A DNA stretch of 57,417 bases, taken from IMG/VR virus record IMGVR_UViG_3300028454_000679; one strand, given 5' to 3'. This DNA is from a virus. Taxonomy: Duplodnaviria; Heunggongvirae; Uroviricota; Caudoviricetes. Below, in pieces: positions 1 to 52,937 of the stretch; position 1 is the first letter of the stretch; each line of letters begins with the position of its first letter. A program made the translations under genes and the position numbers. Under the pieces are notes generated by a model. That model made no database searches and was not told where the DNA came from. It saw nothing but the letters and a program-made list of their open reading frames with translations.

Positions 1-134
1 TCGTAACTAACATTCTCTTTTAAATCGCCGTCAGCCGCAGCCTCTGCCTTATCTATTCGAACCTGCTCCAATTGCAATTGTTTAGCTTCCAGCTCTCGCT
101 CTAATGCTCTCTTTTTACCGATAGTTCCTCTCAT
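1..134 (-). CDS. greA: GreA/GreB-like transcription elongation factor, N-terminal part (runs off the left edge; absent from the ORF track)
   Basis: ATG at 134 with GGAGG RBS at 140-144. Translates to MRGTIGKKRALERELEAKQLQLEQVRIDKAEAAADGDLKENVSY, matching the GreA pattern T.EG...LE.EL...A...GDL.EN..Y including both acidic tip residues. Confidence 0.8.
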   Translation of the reverse strand, partial: MRGTIGKKRALERELEAKQLQLEQVRIDKAEAAADGDLKENVSY

Positions 135-2693: not shown

Positions 2694-3094
2694 TCGAACC
2701 TCCGTACAGTTGAAACTGCGCACACACTACCATACAGGTGAAAAATACCTCTGTAATAGGTGATCTCATACTCATTCATAGTTGTACTATGTTTTTTAAC
2801 TGAATCGTAATCAGACATCTTGTAACTTTCTCCATCTTGCAAATTATTATATGTGACAACCCCGTTTTCTTCTGTAACTGACTCTACCGGTTGCACAGAT
2901 AAAAGAACCTCTGTGGAATAATACATAGGCTCCATCTTCACAAAGACAACGAGTGCAAGTGCTACAATGCAGTCAACAGCAAAGCCAAACCAGCACAAAG
3001 TCGTTAATACTGACTTGCAAAAGATTAAAGACACAAGAAATACAATCAATACAAGAGTCAGTACAACACTTACAGCCACATTAAAAGAAATCAT
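2690..3094 (-). CDS. small membrane protein
   Basis: Two N-terminal TM helices; ATGA overlaps with both neighbours. Confidence 0.7.
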   Translation of the reverse strand: MISFNVAVSVVLTLVLIVFLVSLIFCKSVLTTLCWFGFAVDCIVALALVVFVKMEPMYYSTEVLLSVQPVESVTEENGVVTYNNLQDGESYKMSDYDSVKKHSTTMNEYEITYYRGIFHLYGSVCAVSTVRRFE

Positions 3095-3852
3095 TGAAAT
3101 GTTCCTGACTTCAAAATATTTGTGAACTTAGGACTAAAAGAAATAATAGCCGGGTATTTAAACCAATCATTGTTATGTACAGTATCAAGAACCTCAAACT
3201 GATTGGATGTGTCTTTGCGGCACAACTCCTTCACGCCATAATCTGACAACACTATAGTTGCTAAGCCTGAACGAGCACGTTTAGTGATAAGTTCGTTTAT
3301 TACAGGGTAACAATACTCATGTTGCGGTAGCTTTGTGACGGTCATAAAGCAAACCTCTGCCATAAGATAGCTATCATAATCAATCTGATTAAATAGTTTG
3401 TAAGTAGGTCTATCAGCACCTAGGACAAACAAACGTTTTACATCGTTAGTATCTAAAACCGGTGCGACTGTAAAACCAGCGTCTAATGCATGCTGAATGC
3501 ACGAATACATAAAAGTAGTCTTTGAGAATCCAACTGGTGCAGAAATAATGACAGACTTCTGTGGTATCTGTTTGCTAGAGAACACTCTGTGAACTTTCTC
3601 CAACTGTGAGCAATACCTCTCAAACATTTGATTATCCACAAGCTCTGGCTTAAACTGTTTTAATTTCTCAGCAGACCAAGCGATGCCTCGATACTGAGAA
3701 GGCACACCATACACACTAATTTTCTCTACAAAATCTTCTGTGGTTTCTCTCTGCTCAAAATTAAATGAGCCCCTGAGGTCAATACCACACTCGGGGCATA
3801 CTCTATCTCTGAAACCTTCACCACCACAGGTAAAACAATGCTTACTTTTCAT
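3091..3852 (-). CDS. DnaC/IstB-like ATPase with N-terminal Zn finger (putative helicase loader, degenerate)
   Basis: CFTC...CPEC Zn motif; VIISAPVGFSKT degenerate Walker A; INELITKR...TIVLS resembles the DnaC/IstB C-terminal motif. Confidence 0.55.
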   Translation of the reverse strand: MKSKHCFTCGGEGFRDRVCPECGIDLRGSFNFEQRETTEDFVEKISVYGVPSQYRGIAWSAEKLKQFKPELVDNQMFERYCSQLEKVHRVFSSKQIPQKSVIISAPVGFSKTTFMYSCIQHALDAGFTVAPVLDTNDVKRLFVLGADRPTYKLFNQIDYDSYLMAEVCFMTVTKLPQHEYCYPVINELITKRARSGLATIVLSDYGVKELCRKDTSNQFEVLDTVHNNDWFKYPAIISFSPKFTNILKSGTFQ

Positions 3853-4273
3853 GTTTGTAATTCTTAACCTCCGCTGGCTTATTTGCCTTGTTGCTGGATT
3901 TTCTTTTAAAGATTCTTTTAAAGATACTTGACTTTTCTTTTGTGGCTATTGGTATCTCAATAGCCTGATAAGCGCCAGTGGCAGCTGTCCATGATGGAAG
4001 CGACTCTTCACACCCATAAACCTGTGGGTCTGGAATAACTTTTTGTAAAGCAGCAACCATAGCCACATGCTCTGCTGACTTATTCATAGTGTCAGCTAAA
4101 TTCGTCCAGAAAATACTGTTATCTGTTGCTATACAAGCTGGCGGGTCTGTCATAAGATAAACATCAACATTCTTTCCTGTTTCTTGCTTTTTCTCCTGCA
4201 TACGTTTCCAGACATCCTCTGGATTATCAAATTCCTCATAGTCAAGCAATTCGCCATAAATCCTATATTTCAT
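3842..4273 (-). CDS. hypothetical protein
   Basis: 143 aa ORF with a basic tail containing KEKSSIF. Confidence 0.7.
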   Translation of the reverse strand: MKYRIYGELLDYEEFDNPEDVWKRMQEKKQETGKNVDVYLMTDPPACIATDNSIFWTNLADTMNKSAEHVAMVAALQKVIPDPQVYGCEESLPSWTAATGAYQAIEIPIATKEKSSIFKRIFKRKSSNKANKPAEVKNYKHEK

Positions 4274-4796
4274 TATATTCTTTCAATACCTTTCCTAAAC
4301 GCTTTGTTACTTCACCAACATTCAAGCTTACCTCTCTATCATAACAAAGAAGCTTGATAGCTCTAGGCATTTGAGAGAAGTGATATATGCACTCACAATC
4401 AGACTTCACCTCGGTTGAATCAGGTACAACGATAAGAGGCACTAATGGTAAAAAGACACCGTACTCCTTATAGTAGGCAACTTGCAATGCTCTTTCATGC
4501 ATCATGTTCTGATCATAGACATTGATAACAGTCATATTATGTTTATTCGCTGCTATACCTGTCCAGACTCTTGCATCTAAGTTACCTTTAATTGCATTCT
4601 TCCAATTCTTACACTCTATAACAAAGACACATCTATCAGTTACAGCGAGAACATCTATCTGTGTCTTGCATTTTAACCACGGACTATACAGAGCTTTGTT
4701 ATGAATAAAGCGCGTGTTACCTAATTGCGTTCGAATTTGTTGACAAACTGCTAACTCAAACTGCGTTCCAGATGCATCTAATGCTTCTCTGTTCAT
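4263..4796 (-). CDS. NERD domain PD-(D/E)xK nuclease
   Basis: G..FE...TQIDVLAVTDRCVFVIECKNWK...Q...H is the NERD signature. Confidence 0.85.
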   Translation of the reverse strand: MNREALDASGTQFELAVCQQIRTQLGNTRFIHNKALYSPWLKCKTQIDVLAVTDRCVFVIECKNWKNAIKGNLDARVWTGIAANKHNMTVINVYDQNMMHERALQVAYYKEYGVFLPLVPLIVVPDSTEVKSDCECIYHFSQMPRAIKLLCYDREVSLNVGEVTKRLGKVLKEYNEI

Positions 4797-4811
4797 ACTG
4801 CCTCCAACCTA

Positions 4812-4837
4812 GAAGAGGGAGACACGTCTCCCTCTTC
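4812..4837 (-). terminator. perfect hairpin after the Ig/Cys-repeat gene (terminator or RNA-stabilising stem)
   Basis: GAAGAGGGAGA-CACG-TCTCCCTCTTC, 11-12 bp stem; no clear U-tract. Confidence 0.45.
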
Positions 4838-4844
4838 CAAAATT

Positions 4845-6152
4845 TTAATATTTATACCATCTACTTAAGTGGTACGAAATGCTGTTCAATGGTATTACTT
4901 GATCCCACTTAACTATCAAATTGGAACCTACCGCACTGACACCTGCAACATACACATTAGTACCAGAGATTGCTTGCACAAAGTAGCAATCGCCATTTGA
5001 TACAAATACAATATCACCAGCCTTTAAATTAGTTGAACCCTCAACCCTGTAAGCTGGGTCGATACCGAACATTGCATCTGAACAAGTGTAAGCAAATGCA
5101 ACTGCTCCGACACCTGTCTTAGCAAAGTTTCTACCTTCCCCACCTTTCCAAGTGTAAGCACTTGTTGCAGAGAATGAAGAGCCCTCTTTCAGACCATTCT
5201 GATTACGTATACCTGTGGTAGATGAAGCTACAGACTCTTCAGGAACATACCATTTGTAGTTACCATCATAAGTATCCTTGCAGACACTACATGTGTAAGT
5301 TGTGTAACCACGTGAGGTCAAAGTAGCAGGTGTTTCCTTAGTTGTATACTTGTGGCCATTAACTTTGGCTGTCTCAGTCTTAGTCTTACCACATTCATCA
5401 CAAGTAAAGGTAGTAATCTGCGGATGCGTACAATCACCCTCTTGGGTAACCTCACCTTTATCCCAAGAATGAGCCTTTTCATCTATTGGGATAATCTCTT
5501 CCTTAGGCTCTTTACAGACAAGACAAGTGAATGTTCTGATTCCTTCTGTTGTACATGTAGCCTTGGTTGTAATCTTACCAGAATCCCATGTATGCACATC
5601 TGTCTTCTTGATAACACCCTTTACACGTTTTTTACACTCTTTGCACTCATACCAACCTTTGCCTTCATCCTTACATGTTGGTGCTTTGATAATTTCCTTC
5701 AGTTTATACTCATGGTCAGTCATTTCCAAGGCTCTGACTTTCTTACGTCCACATACCTTGCAAGTGTAAACCTCTTGTCCCATACTATGACATGTAGGTT
5801 TTATGATAATCTTAGCAGCGTAAACATGAACACACTTTCTAACCGTTACTGTGCATTTTAGTTTCTTTACTTTCTTTCCTGTATCAACTTTGGCCGTGAT
5901 AATAGCTACACCTCTCTTCAAGGCTCTAACTTTACCTGTCTTTTTGGAAACTTCAGCAATCGCTGGCTTATTACTGGTGTAGCTAACCTTTGCCTTAGAA
6001 GACACACCAGACACTTTTAACTTAAAAGTCTGCCCAATATACAGACTCTTTTTTGTTAATGCTGTAGAAGCTACAGCTGGCATAGGTAAAGTTGAAGCCA
6101 CTACTAGTATACAGCACATAAAAATAATACTAATTCTCCGTTTTACACTCAT
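4845..6152 (-). CDS. secreted surface protein: Ig-like (Big_2) domain + Cys/His repeats + degenerate CHAP/NlpC-like C-terminal domain
   Basis: AGGAG RBS before MSVKRR and a signal peptide; LYIGQTFKLKV..YTSNKPAIAEV..GKVRALKRG.AIITA = Big_2; five H-x-PTC-xxx-G-xxx-YTC-xx-C repeats. Confidence 0.8.
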   Translation of the reverse strand: MSVKRRISIIFMCCILVVASTLPMPAVASTALTKKSLYIGQTFKLKVSGVSSKAKVSYTSNKPAIAEVSKKTGKVRALKRGVAIITAKVDTGKKVKKLKCTVTVRKCVHVYAAKIIIKPTCHSMGQEVYTCKVCGRKKVRALEMTDHEYKLKEIIKAPTCKDEGKGWYECKECKKRVKGVIKKTDVHTWDSGKITTKATCTTEGIRTFTCLVCKEPKEEIIPIDEKAHSWDKGEVTQEGDCTHPQITTFTCDECGKTKTETAKVNGHKYTTKETPATLTSRGYTTYTCSVCKDTYDGNYKWYVPEESVASSTTGIRNQNGLKEGSSFSATSAYTWKGGEGRNFAKTGVGAVAFAYTCSDAMFGIDPAYRVEGSTNLKAGDIVFVSNGDCYFVQAISGTNVYVAGVSAVGSNLIVKWDQVIPLNSISYHLSRWYKY

Positions 6153-6730
6153 TCTAATTCTCCTTTTATTGGCTCTGTAAAAGAACCTGTCTGCGTTACT
6201 AAACAAATCTTTCCTGGAGTGCGCATAGCACCCTCTGCAATAAACTCGCACATACGATTAACACCAACAACATTTGGAATATCCATAGCAGTCCCTGTAT
6301 ACCCCGCAGTAGCTACATACCTAACTACATCCATTGGAGTTACAAGAGTTACAAAGACACCGTTACCATCAACTAGAATAGCGTGACCTCTTTGCTTAAC
6401 CACATTTACAACAGAACTCAGTGGCATTGCGAGATTAACAAGAGCTGCCTTAGTCAACTGTTGTGCATAGTGGGATTCAATAGATGCCAAAATCTCATCC
6501 AAGCAATCCAGCATGCCTTGGGATACCCTAATAAAGTCTGCATAATCCGGTTCATGCTGAATATAATTTCTTACATTTCGGCACATCCTAAGCTTGGTTT
6601 GAAGAGAAGTTCCATCAAGAAAATCCTCCAAAAACTTAACGGGTGAACCATCGTTGTAAGCAGGCAATTGTTTAACTGCCTGCTCCACCCTTTTGAACTT
6701 GTCAATAAACAACTGATACTCTAATTCCAT
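6149..6730 (-). CDS. HEPN-CBS domain protein
   Basis: FIDKFKRVE...RNVRNYIQH (R-x4-H HEPN motif), followed by CBS-like AILVDGNGVFVTLVTPMDV and VTQTG..EPIKG. Confidence 0.65.
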   Translation of the reverse strand: MELEYQLFIDKFKRVEQAVKQLPAYNDGSPVKFLEDFLDGTSLQTKLRMCRNVRNYIQHEPDYADFIRVSQGMLDCLDEILASIESHYAQQLTKAALVNLAMPLSSVVNVVKQRGHAILVDGNGVFVTLVTPMDVVRYVATAGYTGTAMDIPNVVGVNRMCEFIAEGAMRTPGKICLVTQTGSFTEPIKGELE

Positions 6731-11544: not shown

Positions 11545-12387
11545 TTAAGTAAAGACACTGCTCTTACTTACTGTTGGTTGTGCCAGTAAAGTACTCACCC
11601 TGGGAAAGTGAATCAAGACTATTGCTCGTATTCTTGAAGCAATAGTATCTCCATACACCGCTCTAATACGCTCAATTGCTGGAGAAATATCAGGCGTTTT
11701 CAGTTCTACACCAGTACCATAAAGTGTATGGCATGCTTCTACCTGTTTCTCAAAAGATGTAGCAAATGGTCTTGCTTTCACGCCGTTTAACTCCTTGCGG
11801 ACATTACCGTCTTCCGAATATTTGGTTCGTAGATTTGACAGAAATCCCATTCCACAATCAAAGATAGGTGCAGGACGAAACTTGCCTTGTTTCTTATTGT
11901 ATAATAGAGCAATATTATTAAAGTGTCTATCCTCATTCAGAGTAAGGTAATCCACATCAAGTAATTTTGACAAGTACACACCAAAATCCTTAATGCCAGT
12001 ATTCTGTTCAACAACACTAACAAACGATTGAATCTTATCAGTAGTTGCCAACTGTTGCCATGCATTCAAACTTATTTGGTTATAGTAATCCCTGTCAACA
12101 CTTTTCAACAGCCGTGCAATAGTGATAACAAACTCATCAGGTGCTTTAAAGTCTTTGGAAACACAACCGGTTACCATCTTCCCATTCTGCTCCATTGTGA
12201 CCAAATCATACTTAACAAATTCTGATTCATTTAAATCTGTATATTGCATGACATAAGACGCCAAATACTCTGCGGCACCTTCGTATCCTAAGAAGCCAGC
12301 CTTGTACCAGTAACCATCACATTCATACTTTGCCTGATTACCAAGGGCACTGGGAGCTATTCCACCAGAATTGCTAACACTAAACAT
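11545..12387 (-). CDS. HipA-family Ser/Thr kinase (HipT-like, lacking the N-subdomain)
   Basis: GNQAK, WYK, EYLAS, NEDRHFNNIA, APIFDCG motifs; GGAGG RBS; ends VSKSSVFT. Confidence 0.85.
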   Translation of the reverse strand: MFSVSNSGGIAPSALGNQAKYECDGYWYKAGFLGYEGAAEYLASYVMQYTDLNESEFVKYDLVTMEQNGKMVTGCVSKDFKAPDEFVITIARLLKSVDRDYYNQISLNAWQQLATTDKIQSFVSVVEQNTGIKDFGVYLSKLLDVDYLTLNEDRHFNNIALLYNKKQGKFRPAPIFDCGMGFLSNLRTKYSEDGNVRKELNGVKARPFATSFEKQVEACHTLYGTGVELKTPDISPAIERIRAVYGDTIASRIRAIVLIHFPRVSTLLAQPTVSKSSVFT

Positions 12388-12389
12388 AC

Positions 12390-12698
12390 TTATTCCTCCA
12401 ACTCTAAGGTGCATTCATCATCATACATACGTCCTTTAGTTTTCAACACAATAAGTAACGGGTCATAATGGTCTATGCCAAGCTGGTCTAAATACCATTG
12501 AAGATTATCACGACTTCTAGGGAAGCATCTGCTCTCAAGAAGATCTTCGAAGTCATGATACGTTGGGTTCAGAGTATTTCCAAATGCTCGCAGAATTGGA
12601 ATATCAGTGTGATTTATAATTGATACTGTCTTTTTCTTATTATCAACAAAAATCTCTGTCATAACTTTTCCTGCATCCTTAAATAACCATTTCTCCAT
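12390..12698 (-). CDS. HipA N-terminal-domain-like (HipS-like) protein
   Basis: FEDLLESRCFPRSRDNL...LGIDHYDPL...TKGRMYDD; coupled directly upstream of the kinase. Confidence 0.7.
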   Translation of the reverse strand: MEKWLFKDAGKVMTEIFVDNKKKTVSIINHTDIPILRAFGNTLNPTYHDFEDLLESRCFPRSRDNLQWYLDQLGIDHYDPLLIVLKTKGRMYDDECTLELEE

Positions 12699-12748
12699 AA
12701 TACTCTCCTTAATGCTGTCGTTCAACAGAAACAAACAGATAGAACATC

Positions 12749-13909
12749 CTACGCAAATACAGTTGACTTTTCCACACTTGAATCACTTTTAAAATCCACA
12801 GTGTATGTTTTATCCTGCATCAATTCCTGTAAGTTTCTCTCAGTTATCTGTCTTATAAATTCCATCCTCTCTTCAGGTAAATTATACACCGAATGTATTG
12901 GAAGGTAAATTGTTCTCGGTATTCTACTCCTAATACTATCTGTTAGGAATGCTTGCCCTATCTTTGCAAAATCCCCACCTAACTTATGCCCAAAATGACC
13001 GTCACTAGTATACTTACTAAAATCCTCTAAGTCATCCTGCATTGCATAAGTGAGCATAGAGATATTAAAGTCGAATAATGGTGCAAAATCAACTATCTCA
13101 TAGCTGTCGCTGTCTACGAGAAATCCAAAGTTGCCTAAATGTCTATCTTGATTAAAGACAATGGAATCTAAAACAATCATTTCCTGAAATTTTTCTAGCA
13201 CACCATACTCAGCACACAACTGTGGTAAGTTCTCCCAACTATACAAAATATTCCTATCAGTATAGCGATGCATCGGAACATAAGCCAAATCTTTCGACGT
13301 AAACATTTTGCATTTAGTACAAATATGTCCATGCTTATTTACAAGATCATACCTTACAACATCCTGCTTAGTAAACTGCCTGGCAATAAAGCTGGAAATA
13401 TACTCAGAGTAGGGTTCAAGTCCAACATTGGCAGCCCCAGATTGACCTGTCTTGTAAAGGAAAATCCCATCAGATTCTCTTTTCCAAAATTTTGGAAAGG
13501 AGCCCTCTGCAGTAAATTCAGGACTTGTTGTGGCTGAAAGCTGTAATCCATGCAACCCACCTTCGAAAGCAGTTTTCTCCACTATATCAGAAAACTCATT
13601 ATCATATAGGTTTATACAGTCCCAGGATAACTCGGATTCAGCTTTCTTCACCCACAGTGTGTCATTAAGCGACAGTGCATGAGTTACCTCAATAAATCCC
13701 TCAATGGTGTCAATGCCCCATTCCTTAGTCCAGTTAGTCAAATGCTCCTTATGTTTTGCATAATTACGACTTGCTAACCATGTATTTAGATCAAAGGATG
13801 GAATTCTTATATCATTTAGCATTTTATCGCACACAGCAATAGTACTAACAATACCCTTTTCCATATGAAAAGATAATAATGGTACGTTCTTATTCATTAA
13901 ATAATACAT
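12749..13909 (-). CDS. HipA-family kinase with fused N-terminal domain
   Basis: YLMNKN N-domain; EGSFPKFW..LYK, EPYSEY, NQDRHLGNFG, APLFDFN; ends VEKSTVFA. Confidence 0.88.
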   Translation of the reverse strand: MYYLMNKNVPLLSFHMEKGIVSTIAVCDKMLNDIRIPSFDLNTWLASRNYAKHKEHLTNWTKEWGIDTIEGFIEVTHALSLNDTLWVKKAESELSWDCINLYDNEFSDIVEKTAFEGGLHGLQLSATTSPEFTAEGSFPKFWKRESDGIFLYKTGQSGAANVGLEPYSEYISSFIARQFTKQDVVRYDLVNKHGHICTKCKMFTSKDLAYVPMHRYTDRNILYSWENLPQLCAEYGVLEKFQEMIVLDSIVFNQDRHLGNFGFLVDSDSYEIVDFAPLFDFNISMLTYAMQDDLEDFSKYTSDGHFGHKLGGDFAKIGQAFLTDSIRSRIPRTIYLPIHSVYNLPEERMEFIRQITERNLQELMQDKTYTVDFKSDSSVEKSTVFA

Positions 13910-13952
13910 TCCGTAGTGACCCCCCTAACACACAAAATAAACTTCAAACGCT

Positions 13953-14936
13953 TTAATTGCTCTTAGACACAAAAATGTTAGAAGTGTGTACAGGATTACT
14001 GGTTGCTAATAATGTAAAATCTTCATTTATAACTTCTTGACGCCTTTGCAACACCTGGTAAGCTCTATCCAGAATAAGTTCCTTTCTGTAGTGCAACATT
14101 TGCTTATAAAACGTTTTTCTTAAATCTGAAATCAAAGGTGTATTGTCAATAATAGAATTTACTTTACTCTCATCGATACGTGGATACAACTCTAAAAATG
14201 CTCTTGTACAATTAGCATCCATACCTGAAGATAACATCTCAAAGTACCCATACTTATTCAACTGCTTAAAATTATTATCCTTATTCAGTGCAGATTTTGG
14301 GAAGTCATTAACTCGCTTTAGCACCTCTTCCTTATTACTAAGGATATCTGTAAATTTTGTTTCAGACAATCCTGGGTAGAGACTACTGCCACAATCATAA
14401 ATCGGAGATGTGGTGAGCTCGCCTGTTAGGAGATTTCTAATAAATCCTAAATTACCACTATGTCTGTCAAAATTCCCAATATATGCATCTAGGACAAAAT
14501 TATAAAAGTAGTGCATAATGGCTTCAGATGCAATGGAAGACAGGTCACTTTGATTGATTGTTCCATACAATTGATCATATGAAGGAATTCTCCCCAGTTC
14601 CTGTTTACGATATACTGTCCTCATGAACCAATTGAGTTCTTGTAGTTTATGATTTGGCTCGACAAAATCTAAGCAAGCTACGGCGATTTCACCATCTACA
14701 ACAGCTAACTTTGTCTTATGCACACTCAGACCCATACTTTCAGCTATATGGCTACTGACGTATTCTGAAATAGCTGAATTGCTGGTAGATGCAGCCAGTG
14801 AATTTTCTTCAACCTTGGTATCTGCAAACTTTATCATGTAGTAGTCATCACCAAGAATATAAGACTCTTTGGAATCTGACCCTCCGTAATCCCGGTAAGC
14901 TCTCTTAGCATTATCTATATCAAATAAAGTGTCCAT
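13953..14936 (-). CDS. HipA/CtkA-like kinase
   Basis: YGGSDSK..YMIKF, SEYVSS, GNFDRHSGNLG, SPIYDCGSSL; GGAGGTG RBS before MDTLF; ends VHTSNIFVSKSN. Confidence 0.88.
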   Translation of the reverse strand: MDTLFDIDNAKRAYRDYGGSDSKESYILGDDYYMIKFADTKVEENSLAASTSNSAISEYVSSHIAESMGLSVHKTKLAVVDGEIAVACLDFVEPNHKLQELNWFMRTVYRKQELGRIPSYDQLYGTINQSDLSSIASEAIMHYFYNFVLDAYIGNFDRHSGNLGFIRNLLTGELTTSPIYDCGSSLYPGLSETKFTDILSNKEEVLKRVNDFPKSALNKDNNFKQLNKYGYFEMLSSGMDANCTRAFLELYPRIDESKVNSIIDNTPLISDLRKTFYKQMLHYRKELILDRAYQVLQRRQEVINEDFTLLATSNPVHTSNIFVSKSN

Positions 14937-15033
14937 AAATGCACCTCCACACCAATTATACACTACAGTGTGAATCCATTACAACATAATCTTGTGTAAA
15001 GACTGGAAACTCCAACCCTTGCATAAAACTATG

Positions 15034-18369: not shown

Positions 18370-20349
18370 CTACTCTTCCTTTCCTGTGAAGTCTAAAGAC
18401 GTTCTTGTCTCAAACTGTTCTGCCATTTCCTTGGGGACAACAGCTTTGATAATTGCTTTGTTTATATCCTTTCCAGTATCATACTGAATCGCAAAACAAT
18501 TCTGGTACTCCCCGTCATCATGGCTGATAAGATTCATATAATCTGTAATCATACCGCAGTCAAAATTTTCTGAAAGTGCTTTTATATCATCGTCTACAAC
18601 ATGCCCAACAATCTTAGTTGTAATATTTGATTTTATCGGACCAAAATCCTCTGAAGTACTAAAAGCAGATACAGCGTTCAAGAGCAGAAACACAGTCAAG
18701 TTATTAGAACGAGAACCTGTAACATTTTGCGAGATAGCATTTACAAGATTTCCAAATGCTGCTGACCTTTGTAACTCTTCATAAAATGCTGCTGTGTGCA
18801 AACCATGTCTGCGACGCACTGTATGCTTCTTTCCATCTAGGAACTGCACCATAAACACTCTTAACGAATCAAGCGTATTCAGAACTTCACCTTGGTTCTT
18901 GTTGAAATCGTAAACCACTCCAGGGCTCTCCAGAATATCTGCAACTGTCAATTCATTCTTGAAAGCGCTTGCGTAACGTCCCTCTGGCATAAAGTAAGCT
19001 GATGTTCTAACACGTATAAGCTTACACAACTTCTTCTGCTCCTCAGTGTAAGATCTAGTAGACTCCAGGGTAGTAATAACATCGAGCACATCACGGTAAG
19101 TGAGACTAGCCGTTCTCTTAAAAGACTTAGGATTGTCTCTATAAACCTTATGTGATGAGAATACCTTTGAAACTGCTGTATCAAGAATGGCACGCAAATC
19201 AGAAACAGAGCCCTCATTAGATGCTAAGTTGGTTGCAATCTCGAATAGATTACACGTACCTGTAACAGCGGTGTCATAATAGAACCCTGCTTCATCATCA
19301 GGCACAGCTATATCATCAAGCCGCAGTGTATTAACAAATCGTGCATTATCACCAGACATATTAATTACAACCGTCTTTACATAAGGACTAAGCTTACACC
19401 ATTCTCCTCCCTTTATATCTATAGCAGACCAATGTATGCCAATAGCTGCTAGATTCACTGCGGTCATAAAAGCCATAAAAGTCTTTCCAAAACCAGATTG
19501 AGCTATCAGCATAACTACCTGTGCAGAGCCTGAAGAGAAAAAGTCAATAAAGAAAGGCATCTTCGATTGCCAATCAAGTCCAAGTAAGAGTGGACCTGAG
19601 CCAACGATACCTTTAGTTTTGTAAGGTAAAATAGATGCCAAGTTATCTGAGGAGAAGAAAACATTACTAAACTTCCTCGATAAGTTAGACTGGTCAACAG
19701 CAGGCGTCATACCAGAGAGATACTCAAAGATACTGCCACCTAGTTTCTGCACAGACAGACCTGCTTTACCACACACATTTGACAATTCCTTAAAGTATGC
19801 ATCTATAATTCGTTTATCCTTTGCAGTAGCCTGTACAAAAAGATGCCCCGCCATAAAAGGATTTCCAGACATAACAGACTTGTAAACGTAGGTGTAACTA
19901 TCGTAAAGGTACTTCCTTGCCTCCAACTCTGACTTGGTTATTGAAATAGTACCCTGCGATGTGTAAGAACGATATCCTGTAAGCTGTTCGTCTGTAGACA
20001 ATGAATCAAAAGCCTGCTTATAGGCACTGTAATTCTCACTAACAGAGTTCAAGATACCCTTAAACTCATCAGATTGTACGTTAATATTCAAAGGCTTCAG
20101 GTAATAGTGTACAATCGTGTCAACATCCGGAAATGCTTGAAACATTTTATCCCGAATAAGTTGGGTGAGATTCAAGTCAAAATCGCCTGGAAAGTCACTA
20201 ACAGTGAACACACACGAGATACCTTTTGAGGTTATATACCTATCGTAAAGATACTTCAGACCAACAAGACTTACGTTTGTATTCAAGACAAGTCGTCCAT
20301 TACTAATCTTGTTGGCTATATACTCAGCATAAATATCAAACTTAGACAT
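18370..20349 (-). CDS. VirB4/ConE-like conjugation ATPase
   Basis: LLGLD...PFFIDFF, MLIAQSGFGKT (Walker A), AIDIKGGE, AAFYEELQ (Walker B-like), IKSNITTKIVG; HerA/FtsK-type layout. Confidence 0.75.
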   Translation of the reverse strand: MSKFDIYAEYIANKISNGRLVLNTNVSLVGLKYLYDRYITSKGISCVFTVSDFPGDFDLNLTQLIRDKMFQAFPDVDTIVHYYLKPLNINVQSDEFKGILNSVSENYSAYKQAFDSLSTDEQLTGYRSYTSQGTISITKSELEARKYLYDSYTYVYKSVMSGNPFMAGHLFVQATAKDKRIIDAYFKELSNVCGKAGLSVQKLGGSIFEYLSGMTPAVDQSNLSRKFSNVFFSSDNLASILPYKTKGIVGSGPLLLGLDWQSKMPFFIDFFSSGSAQVVMLIAQSGFGKTFMAFMTAVNLAAIGIHWSAIDIKGGEWCKLSPYVKTVVINMSGDNARFVNTLRLDDIAVPDDEAGFYYDTAVTGTCNLFEIATNLASNEGSVSDLRAILDTAVSKVFSSHKVYRDNPKSFKRTASLTYRDVLDVITTLESTRSYTEEQKKLCKLIRVRTSAYFMPEGRYASAFKNELTVADILESPGVVYDFNKNQGEVLNTLDSLRVFMVQFLDGKKHTVRRRHGLHTAAFYEELQRSAAFGNLVNAISQNVTGSRSNNLTVFLLLNAVSAFSTSEDFGPIKSNITTKIVGHVVDDDIKALSENFDCGMITDYMNLISHDDGEYQNCFAIQYDTGKDINKAIIKAVVPKEMAEQFETRTSLDFTGKEE

Positions 20350-35870: not shown

Positions 35871-36250
35871 CTTCGTAAGTCATCATCCTCCTTTACTCTC
35901 TCAACAACATAAGTCGGAAATGAATTTGTGCTGATAAGACGCTCCATACTAGGAATGTACTCTGCTGAGATAGCAAAGGTAATCTCAACACACCTATCAT
36001 TAAATTTCTTCAAAGTCACATTATTGAGAATCTCTTGTTGTACGCTTGCATTAACTAAGTCCCTGACAAGCATATCCTTTGTTGCCTCTTCCTTGCGCTT
36101 AGTCTCTTCATACTCAATAATTCTTTGCCTGTAAGAATCACTGGCATGTATTCTACTCACAATAGCAGTATAGAGTTTATCGAAAGGCTTAAGCTTATTG
36201 AGGTCAACAGGATAGTCGACATTAATCTCTTTTCTTATTAAAGCTTTCAT
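35819..36250 (-). CDS. hypothetical protein
   Basis: 143 aa; ATGA-coupled to dnaX. Confidence 0.7.
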   Translation of the reverse strand: MKALIRKEINVDYPVDLNKLKPFDKLYTAIVSRIHASDSYRQRIIEYEETKRKEEATKDMLVRDLVNASVQQEILNNVTLKKFNDRCVEITFAISAEYIPSMERLISTNSFPTYVVERVKEDDDLRRCMKDLPALYTVKPITI

Positions 36251-37332
36251 ACATTAAACACAGCGCTCTTCTTAACCGCGCCATACCTTTCTAAAATAAA
36301 ATGTAATTTGACTAACTTAAACTTGAGTGACTCCTCTGAAATATCCAGAGGTATAGAATCTACAAATTGAAGTAAATCTAATATAGGGACGTCAGACAAA
36401 AGGTCCTTCAAAGTGTCAACATGCTGCTTCAAAAGAACCTCAGACTTCAAGCCAGCCTCTACAAATGTGTACTCAATAAGTAAATCCTTGAATGCGTTAA
36501 TAAAACTGTAAGTATCACTTTTGCTCAAGACATTGTCTATTACAAATCTATAAGAACTTATATCCTGTAAACATGCTGAACTTAGTAAATCTATAATATC
36601 GTACACTTCACATGGATTAACATAGGTCTGAACTTCATCATCTGACATACCTGCATTCTTAAAGAATCTCAAACTTTTCTCCATATCTCTAGGAATTCCA
36701 GCAGACCTTTGGATAATACTATTCATAGTAATACTGTTGTAATGAATACCATATCGTTGTGCGATAGCAATAGCACACTTATACATATCCATAGCATTCA
36801 GTCGTTTAAAGTCGAAGATAATTGCTCTGCTTCTTAACTCCTCTAGAATATCCCTCTTACGCGTAGTGCACATAATGATAAAGACACCCTCTGGTAGACG
36901 GTCGATACGCTCAAGCATAGAAGTAAAAGCATTGTTCACATTCTTTAAAGTATGTGCTTCTTCAAGAATAAAGACATGAGTGTTAGACTTCTTTGTTTCA
37001 AACACAAGCTTAAGCATATTGTTAACATCCTCGTATGTCTTTATCTCAGCACAGTTCAGCACAGATACTGTCTGTGAGTGACCCTGAGTAGGTAATAGTA
37101 AATGATTGTTACTACATGATGAGCAATTACACTGTGTAACATCACCTCTAAAAACAACATCGTTATTCTCACAGGTAAGTGCTATAGCTGCTGCATGAGC
37201 CGCTGAAGTTTTACCAACTCCCATCACTCCTGCAAAAATTGAAAATTTCGGGAACCCACCGTTCCTTATTGCCTTTAAAATGACCTCAATGGTCATAGAA
37301 TTGCCAAAAATCTCAGAAAAACTCTCAATCAT
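36247..37332 (-). CDS. dnaX: DNA polymerase III gamma/tau-like clamp loader ATPase
   Basis: AGVMGVGKTS, ALTC...CNCSSC Zn module, ILEEAH, LRSRA (SRC motif), G.PRD; ends VKKSAVFNV. Confidence 0.88.
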   Translation of the reverse strand: MIESFSEIFGNSMTIEVILKAIRNGGFPKFSIFAGVMGVGKTSAAHAAAIALTCENNDVVFRGDVTQCNCSSCSNNHLLLPTQGHSQTVSVLNCAEIKTYEDVNNMLKLVFETKKSNTHVFILEEAHTLKNVNNAFTSMLERIDRLPEGVFIIMCTTRKRDILEELRSRAIIFDFKRLNAMDMYKCAIAIAQRYGIHYNSITMNSIIQRSAGIPRDMEKSLRFFKNAGMSDDEVQTYVNPCEVYDIIDLLSSACLQDISSYRFVIDNVLSKSDTYSFINAFKDLLIEYTFVEAGLKSEVLLKQHVDTLKDLLSDVPILDLLQFVDSIPLDISEESLKFKLVKLHFILERYGAVKKSAVFNV

Positions 37333-37413: not shown

Positions 37414-39066
37414 TTAAATATTGCTGTTCATACGTTTGATTTCATTAGCAAAGGTGCTCATGATATCATGACCACCAACATGTCCATTGGTAGTGATGTT
37501 CGGTGAAAGCATTGCACGAAGAGCTTCCATCGGGTTAGCAACCTTCTTCGGTCCTTTTGCTCCACCGTTTCCACCACGGGAAGTAAGACCTTTGATACGT
37601 GCTACGAATACATCCTCAGACAATCTAGTAGCCTTAACGAAGTTTCCGTAAACAGAAAGTGGTCCGTCCGGAGCCTCGATGTCGGCTGTTTCGTATACGA
37701 AACGAGTTGTCTGCTTCTCCTCGTTAACTTTCTTGGTGATAATTGGGAACTCAGTTGCGATAACTTCATTCTTCTCTTTATCATCAAACTTAACGTACTG
37801 CATAGGAGCACCATCACACCAGTCAGCAGTGTACTTACCATCCTGAACAGTGATGTTATGCATTGAAGCATTCTTAATCTGATCAAGCTGCGGAGCCTTT
37901 GCAAGCTTAGAAGTCATAATAGACTCAATGGCAGTAGAAATATACTGACCAGCCTGAGCTGCCGGAACAGTTCTGTAACGTTTAACCGGGAACATGTTAG
38001 TTCTAGTAACCTTACGATTATCCTTGTTCGGACGGCTTACATTCAAACGGTAGCGAATAACAGGTCTCTGTGTATCCTCATCCAGCTTTCTGGTTTCAGC
38101 AACAGTTACGATACCGGCATTTTCGCCCATAATATCCTTGGACTCTTTAATTTCTCCACCATAGTTCCAGAGAAGGTTAGCAAATCCCTGCTCTAAGCCA
38201 AAGAACTGAACTTCCAGAGTATCACTCTTGGACTCATCAATCTGCGGAACATTGCCGCTGCCTACATAGCTCAAAGAAATATTGGTCTTTGCTGGTGTAC
38301 CAATAACCAAAGCTTTGATCTTACCTGGAGCTTTCTCAACAAACGCAAAAGATTTTTCCTTTTCACAGAATTTAGCAGGAATAGCCTTGTTAGCATTTCT
38401 TGCCTCAACAACCTTTGCTTCATTCTGGTATTCCGGCAGAACGACACGCTGACCGTTAACTTCCTTTACCTTAGAAGCCAAAGACATTTTAACAACCGGC
38501 TCTGATTCAGTGATGTATCCAAACAACACACCCTTTTCTCTGTTGTTCTCCTGAGCGATAGGATTGCTTACCTGCTCAACGTTTCCAATTGCACTGGAAA
38601 TCTGATTATCCATAGCTGCTTTCACTGCTTTGTTAGCTTCCATTTTGGCTTTACGAGCTTCTTTCTCTGACTCAGAAAGTACCTTGCTCTGTTTTAACTG
38701 CGCTAATTTTGCGTTGATATCTGGCATTCTATTGCCCTCCTTCAAAATTTTTTTCTTTTTTACCATATTCAGTTGTCTGTTTACAATTTGCATAACACAA
38801 AACTCACTTGTCCGAAGTTTATGTATGCAGAGAGTGTCATCCTTACACGAGTAAACTGTTCTCGGATTCTCCACACTCTCATTAGAAGCTATTGCAATCC
38901 AGTCACTTCCTTGTTGTACTAGAATGCCTTCAAGATTATCAATTCCTTCAAAACTACTAACTTCAGTCGCATTCGGCAAAGAGTCTATTTCACTCAAATT
39001 CGTTGCTAAACATCCGAACTCCTGAAGGTTCTTCAAGGTGTATTTCATCTTTCTTGCTCCATTCAT
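37414..39066 (-). CDS. hypothetical, probably abundant protein (strong internal start at 38727, MPDINAKL)
   Basis: Open from 39066; AAGGAGG RBS before the ATG at 38727; own terminator; visibly biased codons (CGT, AAC, TTC, CCG). Confidence 0.8.
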   Translation of the reverse strand: MNGARKMKYTLKNLQEFGCLATNLSEIDSLPNATEVSSFEGIDNLEGILVQQGSDWIAIASNESVENPRTVYSCKDDTLCIHKLRTSEFCVMQIVNRQLNMVKKKKILKEGNRMPDINAKLAQLKQSKVLSESEKEARKAKMEANKAVKAAMDNQISSAIGNVEQVSNPIAQENNREKGVLFGYITESEPVVKMSLASKVKEVNGQRVVLPEYQNEAKVVEARNANKAIPAKFCEKEKSFAFVEKAPGKIKALVIGTPAKTNISLSYVGSGNVPQIDESKSDTLEVQFFGLEQGFANLLWNYGGEIKESKDIMGENAGIVTVAETRKLDEDTQRPVIRYRLNVSRPNKDNRKVTRTNMFPVKRYRTVPAAQAGQYISTAIESIMTSKLAKAPQLDQIKNASMHNITVQDGKYTADWCDGAPMQYVKFDDKEKNEVIATEFPIITKKVNEEKQTTRFVYETADIEAPDGPLSVYGNFVKATRLSEDVFVARIKGLTSRGGNGGAKGPKKVANPMEALRAMLSPNITTNGHVGGHDIMSTFANEIKRMNSNI

Positions 39067-39114: not shown

Positions 39115-39735
39115 CTAAGATACTATTTCAAGCATTTCTGCCTTTTCGAGGGACCTAATAATATCGACAACATCATCCAAGTTGGGTGTTATTTCTAAAG
39201 TAACAAGCCCTGGTTTAGTTGTATAGGTACATGACTCGACTTCATTGTGATTACTTGAAAACGCAACAAAATTCTGTGGTGCATTAAACTGTTTAATAAA
39301 GGTTTCTGTAAGCATTCGATTCTGGTCAGTGTTTCTTACACCAGAATCGAGCACAACAAGAACATACAAATCTGTTGGACGTACTAAGTGGCAGATAGGC
39401 TGCTTAACAGCTTCCTTATATTCATCAAGCATAATAGAACTTAAGGAAATACTGTCATCTCCAGACAACCTAAAAAGTGCAGCTAGCCTATCATCAACGT
39501 ATGTTTCCTGTAGAGCTACATCCAAGTCCAAGCCAACCAAGGAGACAGACTGTAAATTACTTATAACATCAGACATACTCTCCACTACAGAGTTAGACGC
39601 ACTTACGGGATCTATAGGGTCTGTGGATAGCACTGCTACTGCCTGTAAAGACTGAGCACTCATAGCCATCCCTCTAATAAAGTTGGCAATAATATTCTCA
39701 CGATTATGCTCAACTTTTAACTGGTACTTACTCAT
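39115..39735 (-). CDS. divergent RNA polymerase alpha subunit N-terminal-domain-like protein (no CTD)
   Basis: Colinear blocks match RpoA: NIIANFIRGMAMS~TLGNSLRRILLS; SVVESMSDVISNLQSVSL~GVVEDV..IILNLK.L.L; QPICHL~LHIATL; LDSGVRNTDQN~QRGRGY.PAD.N; FVAFSSNHNEVESCTY~IPIDSIYTPV..V.Y; LVTLEI~KLTLEV. Confidence 0.6.
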   Translation of the reverse strand: MSKYQLKVEHNRENIIANFIRGMAMSAQSLQAVAVLSTDPIDPVSASNSVVESMSDVISNLQSVSLVGLDLDVALQETYVDDRLAALFRLSGDDSISLSSIMLDEYKEAVKQPICHLVRPTDLYVLVVLDSGVRNTDQNRMLTETFIKQFNAPQNFVAFSSNHNEVESCTYTTKPGLVTLEITPNLDDVVDIIRSLEKAEMLEIVS

Positions 39736-40241
39736 TTGACGCTACCTCCAAAGTTTAACTTTTCCATTTCTAGAATAATATTGTATATCGTTGTATAGCA
39801 AGTGATCTTGTTTTGTAAATCATCACGATTCGTTACATATTTTGAAACAGCAACCATACTATCTGATTGATAGTTTCTAGTTTCAAGAACACTCGTATTT
39901 AACGGTATCTCTTTGTTCTTATAAAACAAACGAAGTTTTACATCATACAAGTTATTAGCCAAGAACCCAATCATATCTTGATAAAATTCATACATTACTC
40001 TTCGCAGAATAGGTGAATCCTCAAAATGTGTCTTAACGAGAATATAGTAATTATCAGGATTACGATTAAAAATAGTATGGAAAGTTGGAGCAATAAGCTG
40101 GCTCTGTACATAATCCTCGAAATGTATCTCAAACACTCCAGAAACAGACCAATCCTCTAATAGATTTTTAGACTGCCTTAAAGTTTTATCCAAGGAGGAG
40201 ATGAGTACAATATGTGAGATATAATTAGGCTCTACTCTCAT
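39732..40241 (-). CDS. hypothetical protein
   Basis: 169 aa; ATGA-coupled to the alpha-like gene. Confidence 0.75.
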   Translation of the reverse strand: MRVEPNYISHIVLISSLDKTLRQSKNLLEDWSVSGVFEIHFEDYVQSQLIAPTFHTIFNRNPDNYYILVKTHFEDSPILRRVMYEFYQDMIGFLANNLYDVKLRLFYKNKEIPLNTSVLETRNYQSDSMVAVSKYVTNRDDLQNKITCYTTIYNIILEMEKLNFGGSVK

Positions 40242-40244
40242 ACA

Positions 40245-41258
40245 TTAAAACTCCCTTCCAAATAAATTTATATCCTGTACAGTGTAAGCATCAGGATTAA
40301 TATTTCTATCAACTGCATAGGTACCCGAAGCAACACTTAAACCTGCCTGCTTAATAGCCTCCTTTTGTGCATCCGTCAACATCTTTGGTACAAGGTTTAG
40401 TACCCTAAGAGTCTTTTTATCATTTATCATAGACAAATAGGTCGCAAAGGCATCAAGATCCACATCATAAGTAGGTGTAAACAGACTGATACTTTCTGGT
40501 TTCTTTGCAGGTACAACCAGCTCCTTATTTCTCAATACATCCTCTACAGGTAGGGACTCATCCCAAGCAAGCAAAGTTTCAACAAGCAAATCAGATTCCA
40601 TAGCTGTTGATTCATAATTGTAGATACCATTCTGCATTAAAACATCACAGAAATCCCTGTACACTTTGTAAGGTTGTTTTACGCTTATAGCGGGTATCTT
40701 ATCGGAAGAACACCCACAAATAATCTTGTAGAGAGATATTGTATTGTAGAGTATATCCTTCCCCGGGACGACACCAGTTCTAAAGTTATTGTAGTTAACA
40801 AACTTACCCTGCGAACTGCATGGACACAACTCGCCATTAGGCCAGATGCTGTGTGCTATATCAGCATCATTAGTAATAATGCTGTAAAATGTGAAATCAT
40901 CATGAAATTCCTGAACATACCAGTCAATAACATCATCCGCCTCAAACCCATTATGCTTCGCACACAGTATCCCACACCCTGGTAGGTAATTGTATGCAAA
41001 CTCTAACTGTGCATAAACTGCTGGTGCTTTTGGTCTACCAGACTTGTACTCTGAATTTCCACTGCACTTCTTGGAGTGACTATCAAAGACTAATACAAAT
41101 GGTTGTTTACAGTTAATAGCCTCTGCAACATACCGGTTAAGGTAAATAAGACCACCAACAGGCATATTATAGTAAGTTAAGTCGCGATAGTACGGTGAAT
41201 TCATTCCAGTGTGTACAAGGGCAGATACGTCAATTAACCTCATTTTAAATCCAAGCAT
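40245..41258 (-). CDS. 5'-3' exonuclease / flap endonuclease (PolI N-domain-like)
   Basis: LIDVS, LVFD, YKSGR, GFEADDVI, ITNDAD, CG.SSDKIP. Confidence 0.88.
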   Translation of the reverse strand: MLGFKMRLIDVSALVHTGMNSPYYRDLTYYNMPVGGLIYLNRYVAEAINCKQPFVLVFDSHSKKCSGNSEYKSGRPKAPAVYAQLEFAYNYLPGCGILCAKHNGFEADDVIDWYVQEFHDDFTFYSIITNDADIAHSIWPNGELCPCSSQGKFVNYNNFRTGVVPGKDILYNTISLYKIICGCSSDKIPAISVKQPYKVYRDFCDVLMQNGIYNYESTAMESDLLVETLLAWDESLPVEDVLRNKELVVPAKKPESISLFTPTYDVDLDAFATYLSMINDKKTLRVLNLVPKMLTDAQKEAIKQAGLSVASGTYAVDRNINPDAYTVQDINLFGREF

Positions 41259-44155: not shown

Positions 44156-45724
44156 TTATTCCAAATAATTCAAAGTATCTAATGGTAGCTCACCTATAGA
44201 AACATCCTGAACAATATAATCCTCCAAGGACTGATGTGCATCACTCACAGCCTTATGAAGAACATACTCCATCTCGTAGGGCTCATTACACTTTAGCAAC
44301 GCTGACTGTAAATCAGAAGTAAATATAAGGTGCTCAGCGTAAGGCTGTAACTTCCCATTGGCTAATCCAGTGCCATTACACTTCTCACACCCCTGCGCTA
44401 CAGAAACATACTCCTTGTTATACTTTTGTAAAATACTTGAGTACTTCTTTGGTAGTGTATCAACTGCTGTACGTGTTCTACAATGTGGGCATGTCTTTAC
44501 ACACATCTTCTGATTAACTACACCGTTTATTTGACTAATGACGTCCTTATAGCTATCGCCGTAATACTCCTTCAACTTGTATGGTACATGCCACAGTCGG
44601 TTAACATGCATAGTTGTAATAACATGAGCGGAACTGTTAATAAGGTCAAGCACCGCGAAGGCAACAGACTTGTCAGGAATCTCGTTTAGGAAGGCAACAT
44701 TGATATCCTGCTTCTTTGCAAGCCTTACAGCATTGGCTAAAACACTCTCATCGCCCAAGTAGTCAATTTGCGTAAATGGCATAAGAACTTCAATAGGTGA
44801 TTCGTAACTCACAATCTTAATACCTGTATGCACCATCTGGTTAGCCATAGCAAAAGCCGTAGTATTCTTACCGGTACGAATGGCACCTGTGATAAGAGTT
44901 AACCCTGCCTTGCTATGTGATAGTTCTTTTAAATCGTTCTCAATAGCAGCAGTAAAGCCAAGCTGCTCTATATTCAAGCTAACAGTGGCTTTAGTCTGTA
45001 AACGGCAAACATACTGATACCCATCCAATACACGATTAGCAGAGATACGAAGTTCCACACTACCATCACCTAAAATATCAGTAGCATTAGCAACGACACC
45101 AGAGGGGTCTAAAAGGTCTATACTACTGATAGAAGTATCATGCTCAATAAGACTACTTATAATAGAAGAATTAAGCCCCTCATCAATCTTAAACAGATTA
45201 CACGGAACTAAGTCCAAACCTATTCGAAAGTTTACAGTGTAAACTGGTTGCTTATTAACATGTAATACATCAAAGTGAACATCCGTAGCATGCTGTGCAA
45301 GTGCTTCATAGATTATCCGCTGAAAAACCAATGTAGAATTAAGAATCCCGACAGTGCCCCGATGCATATTGTAGTCGTAAGGTGTTACACACTTGAACTG
45401 AATATCCTTACCATGCAGACGTGTCAACTCCAATTCAATTTCTACCTCATTGATAGCTTGCAAATAATTGTAATAGACGAACACATCAGTTTCAGTTACT
45501 ACAAAGAAGGCATCCCCGAACTCTTGGGCATCTACTGGCATTGTCACAAAAGTGCTATCCTTGTACATTTTTCTAAAATACTGCAGCATAGTCTTGTGGG
45601 ACACATACTTATACTGCTCCAGTGCAGAAAGTACATCTGTATCCTCAGTTATACCAGCTATGTTTAACAAGTTAATAACACTCTGTGAAATGCCCAATTC
45701 ATTAAAATTAAGCATCAGCACCAC
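44156..45724 (-). CDS. PilB/GspE-family traffic ATPase
   Basis: ATDVHF, ELRIS..V.DG...VCRL, LITGAIRTGKNTT, SYESPIE, QDINVAFLNEIPD, AHVITTMH, CPHC...CEKC tetracysteine motif. Confidence 0.88.
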   Translation of the reverse strand: MVLMLNFNELGISQSVINLLNIAGITEDTDVLSALEQYKYVSHKTMLQYFRKMYKDSTFVTMPVDAQEFGDAFFVVTETDVFVYYNYLQAINEVEIELELTRLHGKDIQFKCVTPYDYNMHRGTVGILNSTLVFQRIIYEALAQHATDVHFDVLHVNKQPVYTVNFRIGLDLVPCNLFKIDEGLNSSIISSLIEHDTSISSIDLLDPSGVVANATDILGDGSVELRISANRVLDGYQYVCRLQTKATVSLNIEQLGFTAAIENDLKELSHSKAGLTLITGAIRTGKNTTAFAMANQMVHTGIKIVSYESPIEVLMPFTQIDYLGDESVLANAVRLAKKQDINVAFLNEIPDKSVAFAVLDLINSSAHVITTMHVNRLWHVPYKLKEYYGDSYKDVISQINGVVNQKMCVKTCPHCRTRTAVDTLPKKYSSILQKYNKEYVSVAQGCEKCNGTGLANGKLQPYAEHLIFTSDLQSALLKCNEPYEMEYVLHKAVSDAHQSLEDYIVQDVSIGELPLDTLNYLE

Positions 45725-51302: not shown

Positions 51303-51954
51303 GGTCTATAGTTTCCTCCAATTGTGTAAGACCTTCTTTATTAACTAAGTGAAACTCCCTGCGTGGGAGATGCTGATAAAGTGCGCTATTCTGTGCGACA
51401 AGTACAATCTGTAAACCGTCAGCAACAGACTTCGCAAGCATATCACCAATCATAGGAAGTCTTTCTTCACTACCAACACCAAAGGCTTCATCAATAAAAA
51501 CATTTGGTATATTGAGTCCTGTGACAAGTCCTTGAATAGCAGCATATCCAATAATATACTGCATAAGTCTCCCTTGACCTATCGTTGGTGTACTTATAAC
51601 TCCATCAGCATTCACTAACTCAAGACGAACCGTATCGGCTCTGCCTTTCTCAAAATTCAATCTAGCAATATAATTATGCTCTGGAAAATACTCTCTTAGT
51701 CGGAGAGTAATACTTTCATTCATAAAAGCAACACGCTCCTGTTGCATTTTATCGGAAATAGTTTGTGATGCTGTCATAATAAGATTTAATGCATCAACAA
51801 ACTTCTGATAATTCCTTGTTATTCTATCTAATCGTTCCTTCCTGATACGCAACTGTTCAATCTGACGATTGCTCTCCTCAACACTCTGAATCTTATTCTG
51901 TAAAGCACCAAGGTTGCCATGAAGGTAATTTAGATAACTGGTGTAATTTTTCAT
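51295..51954 (-). CDS. SbcC/Rad50 C-terminal half (coiled coil + ABC signature/Walker B)
   Basis: Coiled coil, then IGQGRLMQ (degenerate signature), VFIDEAFG (Walker B/D-loop) and QIVLVAQ (switch); no Walker A. Confidence 0.75.
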   Translation of the reverse strand: MKNYTSYLNYLHGNLGALQNKIQSVEESNRQIEQLRIRKERLDRITRNYQKFVDALNLIMTASQTISDKMQQERVAFMNESITLRLREYFPEHNYIARLNFEKGRADTVRLELVNADGVISTPTIGQGRLMQYIIGYAAIQGLVTGLNIPNVFIDEAFGVGSEERLPMIGDMLAKSVADGLQIVLVAQNSALYQHLPRREFHLVNKEGLTQLEETIDHE

Positions 51955-52937
51955 CTAAACACCACCTTTATATCACCTGGCAAGGTTATACGGATGAAGT
52001 ATGGAAATACTTCAAAGTGAAACTCACCTTGCTTAATAATAGAGAAAACTGTATGGAAGACTACATTGCTTATATCAATCTTCTCTAGTTTTATTTGCTT
52101 ATACATAACATCATTCGTCACTGTAAATGGTAACTTATAGTCAATAGCATTCTCTGAAACACAAACGCATTGTGTTTTAAAATCAAAAGTGAAAGTTGCC
52201 TTGGATGACTTCTGTAAAAAATTGAGAGCATTCGATACATTAACATCACACTCAAAAAGTTTGTCTTCCTGCATCTGATACATCTTTAGATACTCAAGAT
52301 TCGAATACCCATGTGCCTCGTTCAGTAGAGTCACATAATTACCCACGATACTTCCATACAGTGAACTGCTTCCGTTCCTTATCTGAAAGAGCTTAGAAGT
52401 CCCAACAAGTAAGGGAGTGTGTGGTAAAGCGAAAGAGGAAGAACACTCCGTACTCATAAGTACTGCGAATCCCTGCTGTGCCACAACGCTAATAATACCG
52501 CTATCAAAGTTTACTGGCCCTTTCATAACACCTGCCAATTTCGCCATAACTGTAGGTATGTTTAAGGAGTATGCATCACTTGCATTAAGATTGAGCAACT
52601 CATAGTAGCGGTTAGTGAAGGAATCATTAAGGGCTACTTCTGTTGAGCATATAACATTATGGTTAAAGATATTAGAAATTTGTAACTGCCTATCATTGAC
52701 AACAAATTTTAGATATCCTGTTGAGTAAACATTCTTCAAAACATCAAGTGATACATTAAAAGTTATAAACTCACCTGTGCACTCACTAGGCACTATCATA
52801 TCCTGTTTCCAGAAAGTGTTAATTTCAACTACATGGGTAACTCCATTGGTGTAGTAAAAGTCAATTGTGTCCGCTTTACATCTTCTGAGAAAAGAAAGAA
52901 AATCGCCTGTCGATTCTATTTTTAGCAATAGTTCCAT
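51951..52937 (-). CDS. putative sliding clamp (beta/PCNA-like), highly divergent
   Basis: 328 aa with a repeating helix/strand pattern; located among replication genes with dnaX in the same region. Inferred from context only. Confidence 0.4.
   Translation of the reverse strand: MELLLKIESTGDFLSFLRRCKADTIDFYYTNGVTHVVEINTFWKQDMIVPSECTGEFITFNVSLDVLKNVYSTGYLKFVVNDRQLQISNIFNHNVICSTEVALNDSFTNRYYELLNLNASDAYSLNIPTVMAKLAGVMKGPVNFDSGIISVVAQQGFAVLMSTECSSSFALPHTPLLVGTSKLFQIRNGSSSLYGSIVGNYVTLLNEAHGYSNLEYLKMYQMQEDKLFECDVNVSNALNFLQKSSKATFTFDFKTQCVCVSENAIDYKLPFTVTNDVMYKQIKLEKIDISNVVFHTVFSIIKQGEFHFEVFPYFIRITLPGDIKVVFR

Follow-up and report, generated by a model that had tools for sequence, protein, structure and literature searches.

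Descriptions of cellular RNA polymerases (RNAPs) treat alpha as universal, and the multisubunit enzymes that jumbo phages encode lack it (PMC8287921, PMC7598289), a point on which the original prediction for the locus studied here was correct. Jumbo-phage and YonO-type RNAPs provide a precedent for two-barrel RNAPs on mobile elements, the former without alpha and the latter as a single chain. Giant eukaryotic viruses carry RPB3/RPO35, mobile-element alpha-like subunits of archaeo-eukaryotic type that serve cognate large subunits. In Francisella, an alpha-1/alpha-2 heterodimer includes a paralogous, fast-evolved alpha-2 that lacks R45, is encoded on the chromosome beside a cognate alpha-1, and has kept its C-terminal domain (CTD), K86 and K200 (PMC3294249). 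The Rac acetyltransferase of a phiKMV-like phage triggers cleavage of host alpha and thereby yields a host RNAP without the CTD (PMC7552054); Rac itself is no alpha homolog.

The RpoA matches from phage and plasmid records are of the canonical kind (those listed share at least 41% identity with E. coli alpha), and eight of the ten plasmid RpoA loci that were opened are ribosomal-operon fragments. Many plasmid- or phage-labelled rpoA records appear to be mislabelled chromosome fragments carrying the ribosomal operon. RpoA matches also occur in 22 Streptomyces plasmid records, among them NZ_CP109579.1, a 79-kb plasmid whose rpoA (680-1696 of locus L012) lies, like the gene described below, on a plasmid-type replicon and outside the ribosomal operon; unlike that gene, it encodes a full-length protein of 338 aa with canonical motifs and an N-terminal domain (NTD) 46% identical to that of E. 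coli. The literature that we searched, with incomplete coverage, contained no report of an alpha-NTD homolog on a plasmid or phage.

The window, i.e. the whole stretch of 57,417 nucleotides that was analysed, matches part of a 234,325-bp metagenomic ENA contig (ERZ27247021 k141_88331) at 100% identity. The contig occurs in several samples, and 67,092 bp of it (hereafter 67 kb), from about 97 to 164 kb, were read as contiguous sequence. At 39115..39735 on the minus strand the window carries a tail-less alpha-like gene, which is real, conserved and, as far as our literature searches show, undescribed. The gene starts with ATG and encodes 206 aa, predicted to form an RBP11-like dimerisation domain and an insert domain, with no linker or CTD. 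A ribosome-binding site, GGAGGT (39744..39749, minus strand), lies 8 nt before the ATG, and the homolog loci have similar sites. The start overlaps by 4 nt (ATGA) the stop of an upstream 169-aa gene (39732..40241, minus strand), to which the alpha-like gene is translationally coupled; the 169-aa protein gave a poor fold prediction (pLDDT 46), with helical bundles as its only structural matches. The same operon includes a 5'-3' (flap) exonuclease (40245..41258, minus strand; PF02739, E 2.4e-11). On the other side lie a 544-aa gene (37414..39048, minus strand), whose position is kept in the homolog loci, and a DnaX/clamp-loader-like AAA+ ATPase (36247..37332, minus strand; PF13177, E 9.6e-12). 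The 544-aa ORF resembles two in-frame modules; its residues 103-108 correspond to a ribosome-binding-site-like stretch, K-E-G/D then M, whose conservation in two homologs suggests an internal start. As had been claimed, the ribosomal context is missing: neither rpsM, rpsK, rpsD nor rplQ lies in the flanks inspected, canonical rpoA loci serving as controls.

Searched singly or as an alignment, the 206-aa protein has no match in Pfam, NCBIfam, PHROGs or PDB sequences, the PF01193, PF01000 and NCBIfam RpoA models included, and its resemblance to RpoA was therefore tested by other means. The best AF2 model, built on a five-row alignment, has a mean pLDDT of 78.9 and a pTM of 0.72, with a weak stretch at residues 164-175; the remaining four models have pLDDT values of 61-70. 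The feature that defines RpoA membership, an RBP11-like dimerisation domain with an inserted alpha/beta domain, is present in this model, as the structural check set beforehand in the original prediction had anticipated, and the predicted helices at 13-26 and 187-198 would be the counterparts of dimerisation helices H1 and H3. The top 50 Foldseek matches in the PDB are all alpha-sized chains of RNA polymerase entries (best E 7.0e-7, TM 0.51-0.60, 12-17% identity). An independent VIA search placed bacterial or plastid alphas at ranks 1-5 (Z 10.5-8.8, 172-181 residues aligned, rmsd 4.3-4.8), while unrelated rows covered about 65-70 residues. The model is nearer to bacterial alpha (Z 10.5) than to archaeal RpoD (Z 6.6), and RPB3 and RPO35 resemble it weakly in structure (E 0.015 and 0.05). 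ESM Atlas rows for the AF2 model are RpoA clusters throughout (TM 0.66-0.67); the single-sequence ESM Atlas model is poor (pLDDT 0.34) and returned only unrelated rows, none of them alpha.

Sequence profiles point the same way. The family profile matches a single E. coli alpha weakly (E 0.11), and the five-sequence family profile aligns colinearly with a ten-sequence RpoA profile over E. coli alpha residues 11-229 with a score of 28.05, compared with 14.3 ± 2.5 (maximum 22.6) in 100 column shuffles. Because this signal is independent of the AF2 model, it counts against an artefact of structure prediction. Together, the fold matches and the independent profile alignment establish homology to the alpha NTD, and thus the predicted alpha-NTD fold and ancestry of the 206-aa protein; the colinear RpoA blocks originally recognised by eye are borne out. 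The likeness to the bacterial RpoA NTD (E. coli RpoA 1-235; PDB 4noi, 4mex; PF01193 + PF01000) extends over a full-length two-domain fold, and the protein functions like, or at least descends from, an alpha NTD. It departs from canonical RpoA in its low identity, in escaping the sequence models, in its position on a mobile-type replicon outside the rpsM-rpsK-(rpsD)-rpoA-rplQ operon, in the loss of R45 and other contact residues (see below), and in its missing tail. The linker and alpha-CTD (PF03118) are absent, all members ending at 202-206 aa, and an alpha-CTD profile that detects a control RpoA at E 1e-35 found nothing in six frames of the 67 kb and the homolog loci, in agreement with the earlier claim. 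Alphas without a CTD exist elsewhere, as in an Atlas cluster of 256 aa.

Searching 5.8 billion proteins and 1.84 billion representatives yielded a family of five clusters in total. Its members are 24-68% identical in pairwise comparisons, and every one of them stems from a metagenome or read assembly; the record name of one homolog, XIAO16, suggests what we take to be a pig-gut data set. The same downstream gene adjoins the alpha-like gene in every homolog locus, and the 169-aa gene lies upstream in all three loci of sufficient length. For the two unsaturated close pairs, dN/dS is 0.002/0.133 (~0.015) and 0.209/1.483 (~0.14); the family is under purifying selection. Pattern scans of viral, metagenome and genome collections yielded no relatives, plasmid records contained no match to the alpha-like protein or to two neighbours, the family profile gave two matches in 401 genomes, both at chance level, and searches of ~800 Lachnospiraceae-family and class-level genomes returned only partial, generic VirB4 matches.

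What is new relative to the first reading is the extent to which the canonical surface has been lost. Only 8 of the 37 positions that are invariant across ten RpoAs from three phyla are occupied by the same invariant residue in the family, namely N41, R44, S50, A55, I61, G106, L133 and G149 (E. coli numbering). The known beta, beta' and dimer contacts are replaced, several of them by family-invariant residues. The mapped determinants are R45 for beta binding, K86, V173 and K200 for beta', and F35, which is needed for the dimer (PMC3294249). In helix 1, the motif N18-x-I-R21-G22 (39670..39684, minus strand) corresponds to E. coli N41-A-L-R44-R45; N41 and R44 fix the register, so that the replacement of R45 by G or S in all five members is a firm call. 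K86 becomes Q or F, V173 becomes F, the K200 hairpin is shortened and aligns to a gap, and F35 becomes R or V; these and the other assignments apart from R45 depend on the weak profile alignment from which the residue map is drawn. D77, Y152, G169, D174 and Y177 become S, V, N, S and H, each replacement being family-invariant. A family-invariant G132-V133-x-x-x-D137-x-N139 (39319..39342, minus strand) stands in place of RpoA GRGY (G149-Y152), and an equally invariant N155-x-x-A-F-S-S-x-H163 (39247..39273, minus strand) in place of G169..V173-D174..Y177, the large-subunit contact strand. S53, V133, F159, S160 and H163 are retained even among members that are 24-28% identical. Such a surface, conserved yet unlike that of RpoA, suggests, on these sequence comparisons, a conserved partner other than host beta/beta'. 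A complex prediction that combined it with residues 640-1130 of beta and 1-230 of alpha from B. subtilis scored 0.01, which weighs neither way.

The gene content of the 67 kb, in which all genes are co-oriented, points to a giant conjugative-type replicon with its own diverged replisome and VirB4/PilB transfer genes. It includes a PolA-like polymerase, FtsK, a primase, SbcCD-like proteins, UvrD, DHH, the flap nuclease and DnaX, together with PilB, a VirB4-like ATPase, NlpC/P60, NrdG, TatD and GreA. The PilB/GspE-type ATPase (44156..45715, minus strand) matches PF00437 at E 3.6e-28, and the VirB4-like ATPase (18370..20349, minus strand) was so labelled by inspection of motifs and context. The 3' part of a Toprim primase-like gene occupies 56814..57417 (minus strand), and the PolA-like polymerase and FtsK lie further upstream in the same contig. 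There, at 4638-6377 and 2285-4378 of locus L006, the core block includes a 579-aa polymerase of the PolA family, which is highly diverged, and a protein with an FtsK domain; tblastn found no plasmid relative of either. A 328-aa protein encoded between the split SbcC halves (51951-52937, minus strand) is a sliding-clamp candidate by size and context and has no family match. At 11545-14963 (minus strand) is a HipA-like kinase gene cluster with short C-terminal S-x-V/I-F tails, and the same tail occurs on DnaX and on an HRDC protein. The best match of NrdG is in a Clostridia species (45%), which makes an anaerobic Clostridia host plausible. Among plasmids, the VirB4-like ATPase matches only two 215-kb Bacillus plasmids, at 22% identity, and the one that was searched has no alpha or beta' match. 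NZ_CP076292.1, a 215-kb plasmid of Bacillus velezensis, has a layout similar to that of the element (giant protein, AAA ATPase, a further gene, VirB4-like, FtsK); it is typed as non-mobilizable and may belong, distantly, to the same class of transfer systems.

GreA, whose 5' part lies at 1..134 (minus strand) of the window, is diverged and full length at 154 aa, and it keeps the acidic DLKEN tip; it scores 67.6 bits against TIGR01462, where the cut-off is 139. The original prediction had seen in this GreA-like gene the support for a transcription module. The gene is real, but at a distance of ~39 kb from the alpha-like gene it speaks for transcription genes on the element rather than for a module. 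Within the 67,092 bp read of the 234,325-bp contig we found neither a beta' DxDGD barrel motif nor a beta motif of RNAP, the sole DxDGD being inside a secreted coiled-coil protein; no sigma or RNAP Pfam match was found among the genes scanned in the 67 kb, nor a second alpha in the same sequence. TATAA[AT] occurs in 6 of 14 intergenic regions where 2.2 would be expected, a pattern picked post hoc in a small sample, and TTGAC is not enriched in intergenic DNA. The boxes are on the sense strand, e.g. at 4857, 17157, 18020, 39076 and 56796, and some read TATAAATA, resembling T4 late promoters. The TATAA enrichment favours neither an element-encoded nor a host polymerase.

Based on these data, we propose that the alpha-like protein could be the assembly platform of a co-diverged, element-encoded polymerase whose large subunits would lie in the unread 71% of the replicon, a reading to which we give somewhat less than an even chance. 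The protein would dimerise, and on this dimer a beta/beta' pair of similar divergence, likewise encoded by the element, would assemble. Proof-reading in this polymerase would fall to the GreA of the element, and the CTD would have been lost because the element promoters have no need for UP elements or host activators. Several observations count for such an enzyme: the family-conserved replacement of canonical large-subunit contacts, the purifying selection on the family, the bacterial-type alpha fold, and the presence of GreA, PolA-like polymerase, primase and DnaX that are intact yet far below their family cut-offs, as expected of a self-contained machine. Counted against it are the lack of beta, beta' and sigma in the 67 kb, the ordinary -10-like character of the TATAA boxes, the lack of alpha in known mobile-element multisubunit RNAPs (PMC7598289), the distantly related Bacillus plasmid with neither alpha nor beta' matches, and the weak profile alignment beneath the residue map, which is firm in helix 1 and less secure at K86, V173 and K200.

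The original prediction had also allowed for entry into host RNAP, and this branch loses ground, since every known beta, beta' and dimer determinant has been replaced; as far as the sequences can tell, the diverged contacts favour an element-encoded partner. On entry into host RNAP the protein would pair with host alpha in the beta'-side (alpha-II) seat, or replace both copies, so that the host enzyme would carry fewer CTDs, respond less to UP elements and activators, and favour promoters of the element. The loss of R45 is the signature of Francisella alpha-2, R45-less alphas take the alpha-II position (PMC3294249), and removal of the alpha-CTD is a known hijack strategy, with phage Rac producing the same outcome (PMC7552054); the missing beta/beta' in the 67 kb and the -10-like boxes are also consistent with it. 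However, Francisella alpha-2 keeps K86 and K200, whereas the alpha-like family keeps neither and has R or V at F35. Its 12-17% identity to RpoA structures also contrasts with the 41% or more to E. coli seen for the listed plasmid- and phage-labelled RpoAs. Entry into host RNAP is, in our estimation, unlikely.

Equally improbable, in our judgement, is that the alpha-NTD scaffold has no role in RNAP and instead dimerises or binds the 169-aa or 544-aa neighbour in a replication/transfer operon. The translational coupling within an operon of flap nuclease, PilB module, UvrD, DHH and DnaX, the fixed synteny with the two neighbours and the loss of RNAP contact residues would fit such an exaptation. 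Against it, we know of no alpha-NTD, with both subdomains, outside RNAP; the equivalents of N41, R44, S50, A55 and G149 are kept; and the presence of GreA on this element suggests that transcription is under selection. A decoy that binds host alpha without recruiting beta, so as to lower or tune host RNAP assembly or to absorb alpha-targeting factors, has a precedent in that an R45-less alpha dimerises yet cannot form alpha2-beta (PMC3294249). It appears more doubtful still, since a stably maintained replicon would pay a high price for it, F35 on the dimer face has diverged too, and the family-invariant residues of the large-subunit face would be left unexplained. Finally, a chromosomal rpoA from a highly diverged cellular lineage, or a structure-prediction artefact, is very improbable, for despite the many replication genes and the poor single-sequence Atlas model, the genes scanned included no recognisable ribosomal-protein, tRNA-synthetase or comparable housekeeping gene, every gene runs in the same direction as the transfer genes, and the sequence-profile signal is independent of the structural model.

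Taking the element-encoded polymerase as the preferred reading, we suggest, with slightly less confidence than we attach to the platform itself, that a class of gut megaplasmids may encode a complete, deeply diverged cell-type RNAP (alpha2-beta-beta', in which alpha lacks the CTD) together with a GreA and a replisome of their own, and would thus transcribe themselves independently of their hosts. More generally, finding on a conjugative-type replicon an alpha homolog that escapes sequence searches leaves three readings. Either the plasmid transcribes itself with a diverged branch of cell-type RNAP, or host RNAP is reprogrammed in a new way through subunit swapping, or the alpha-NTD fold has here its first use outside RNAP. 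A complete element RNAP, if true, would be the first bacterial mobile-element RNAP to retain the alpha assembly platform. The naturally rewired interface of the alpha-like protein would also show which alpha contacts are necessary for assembly.
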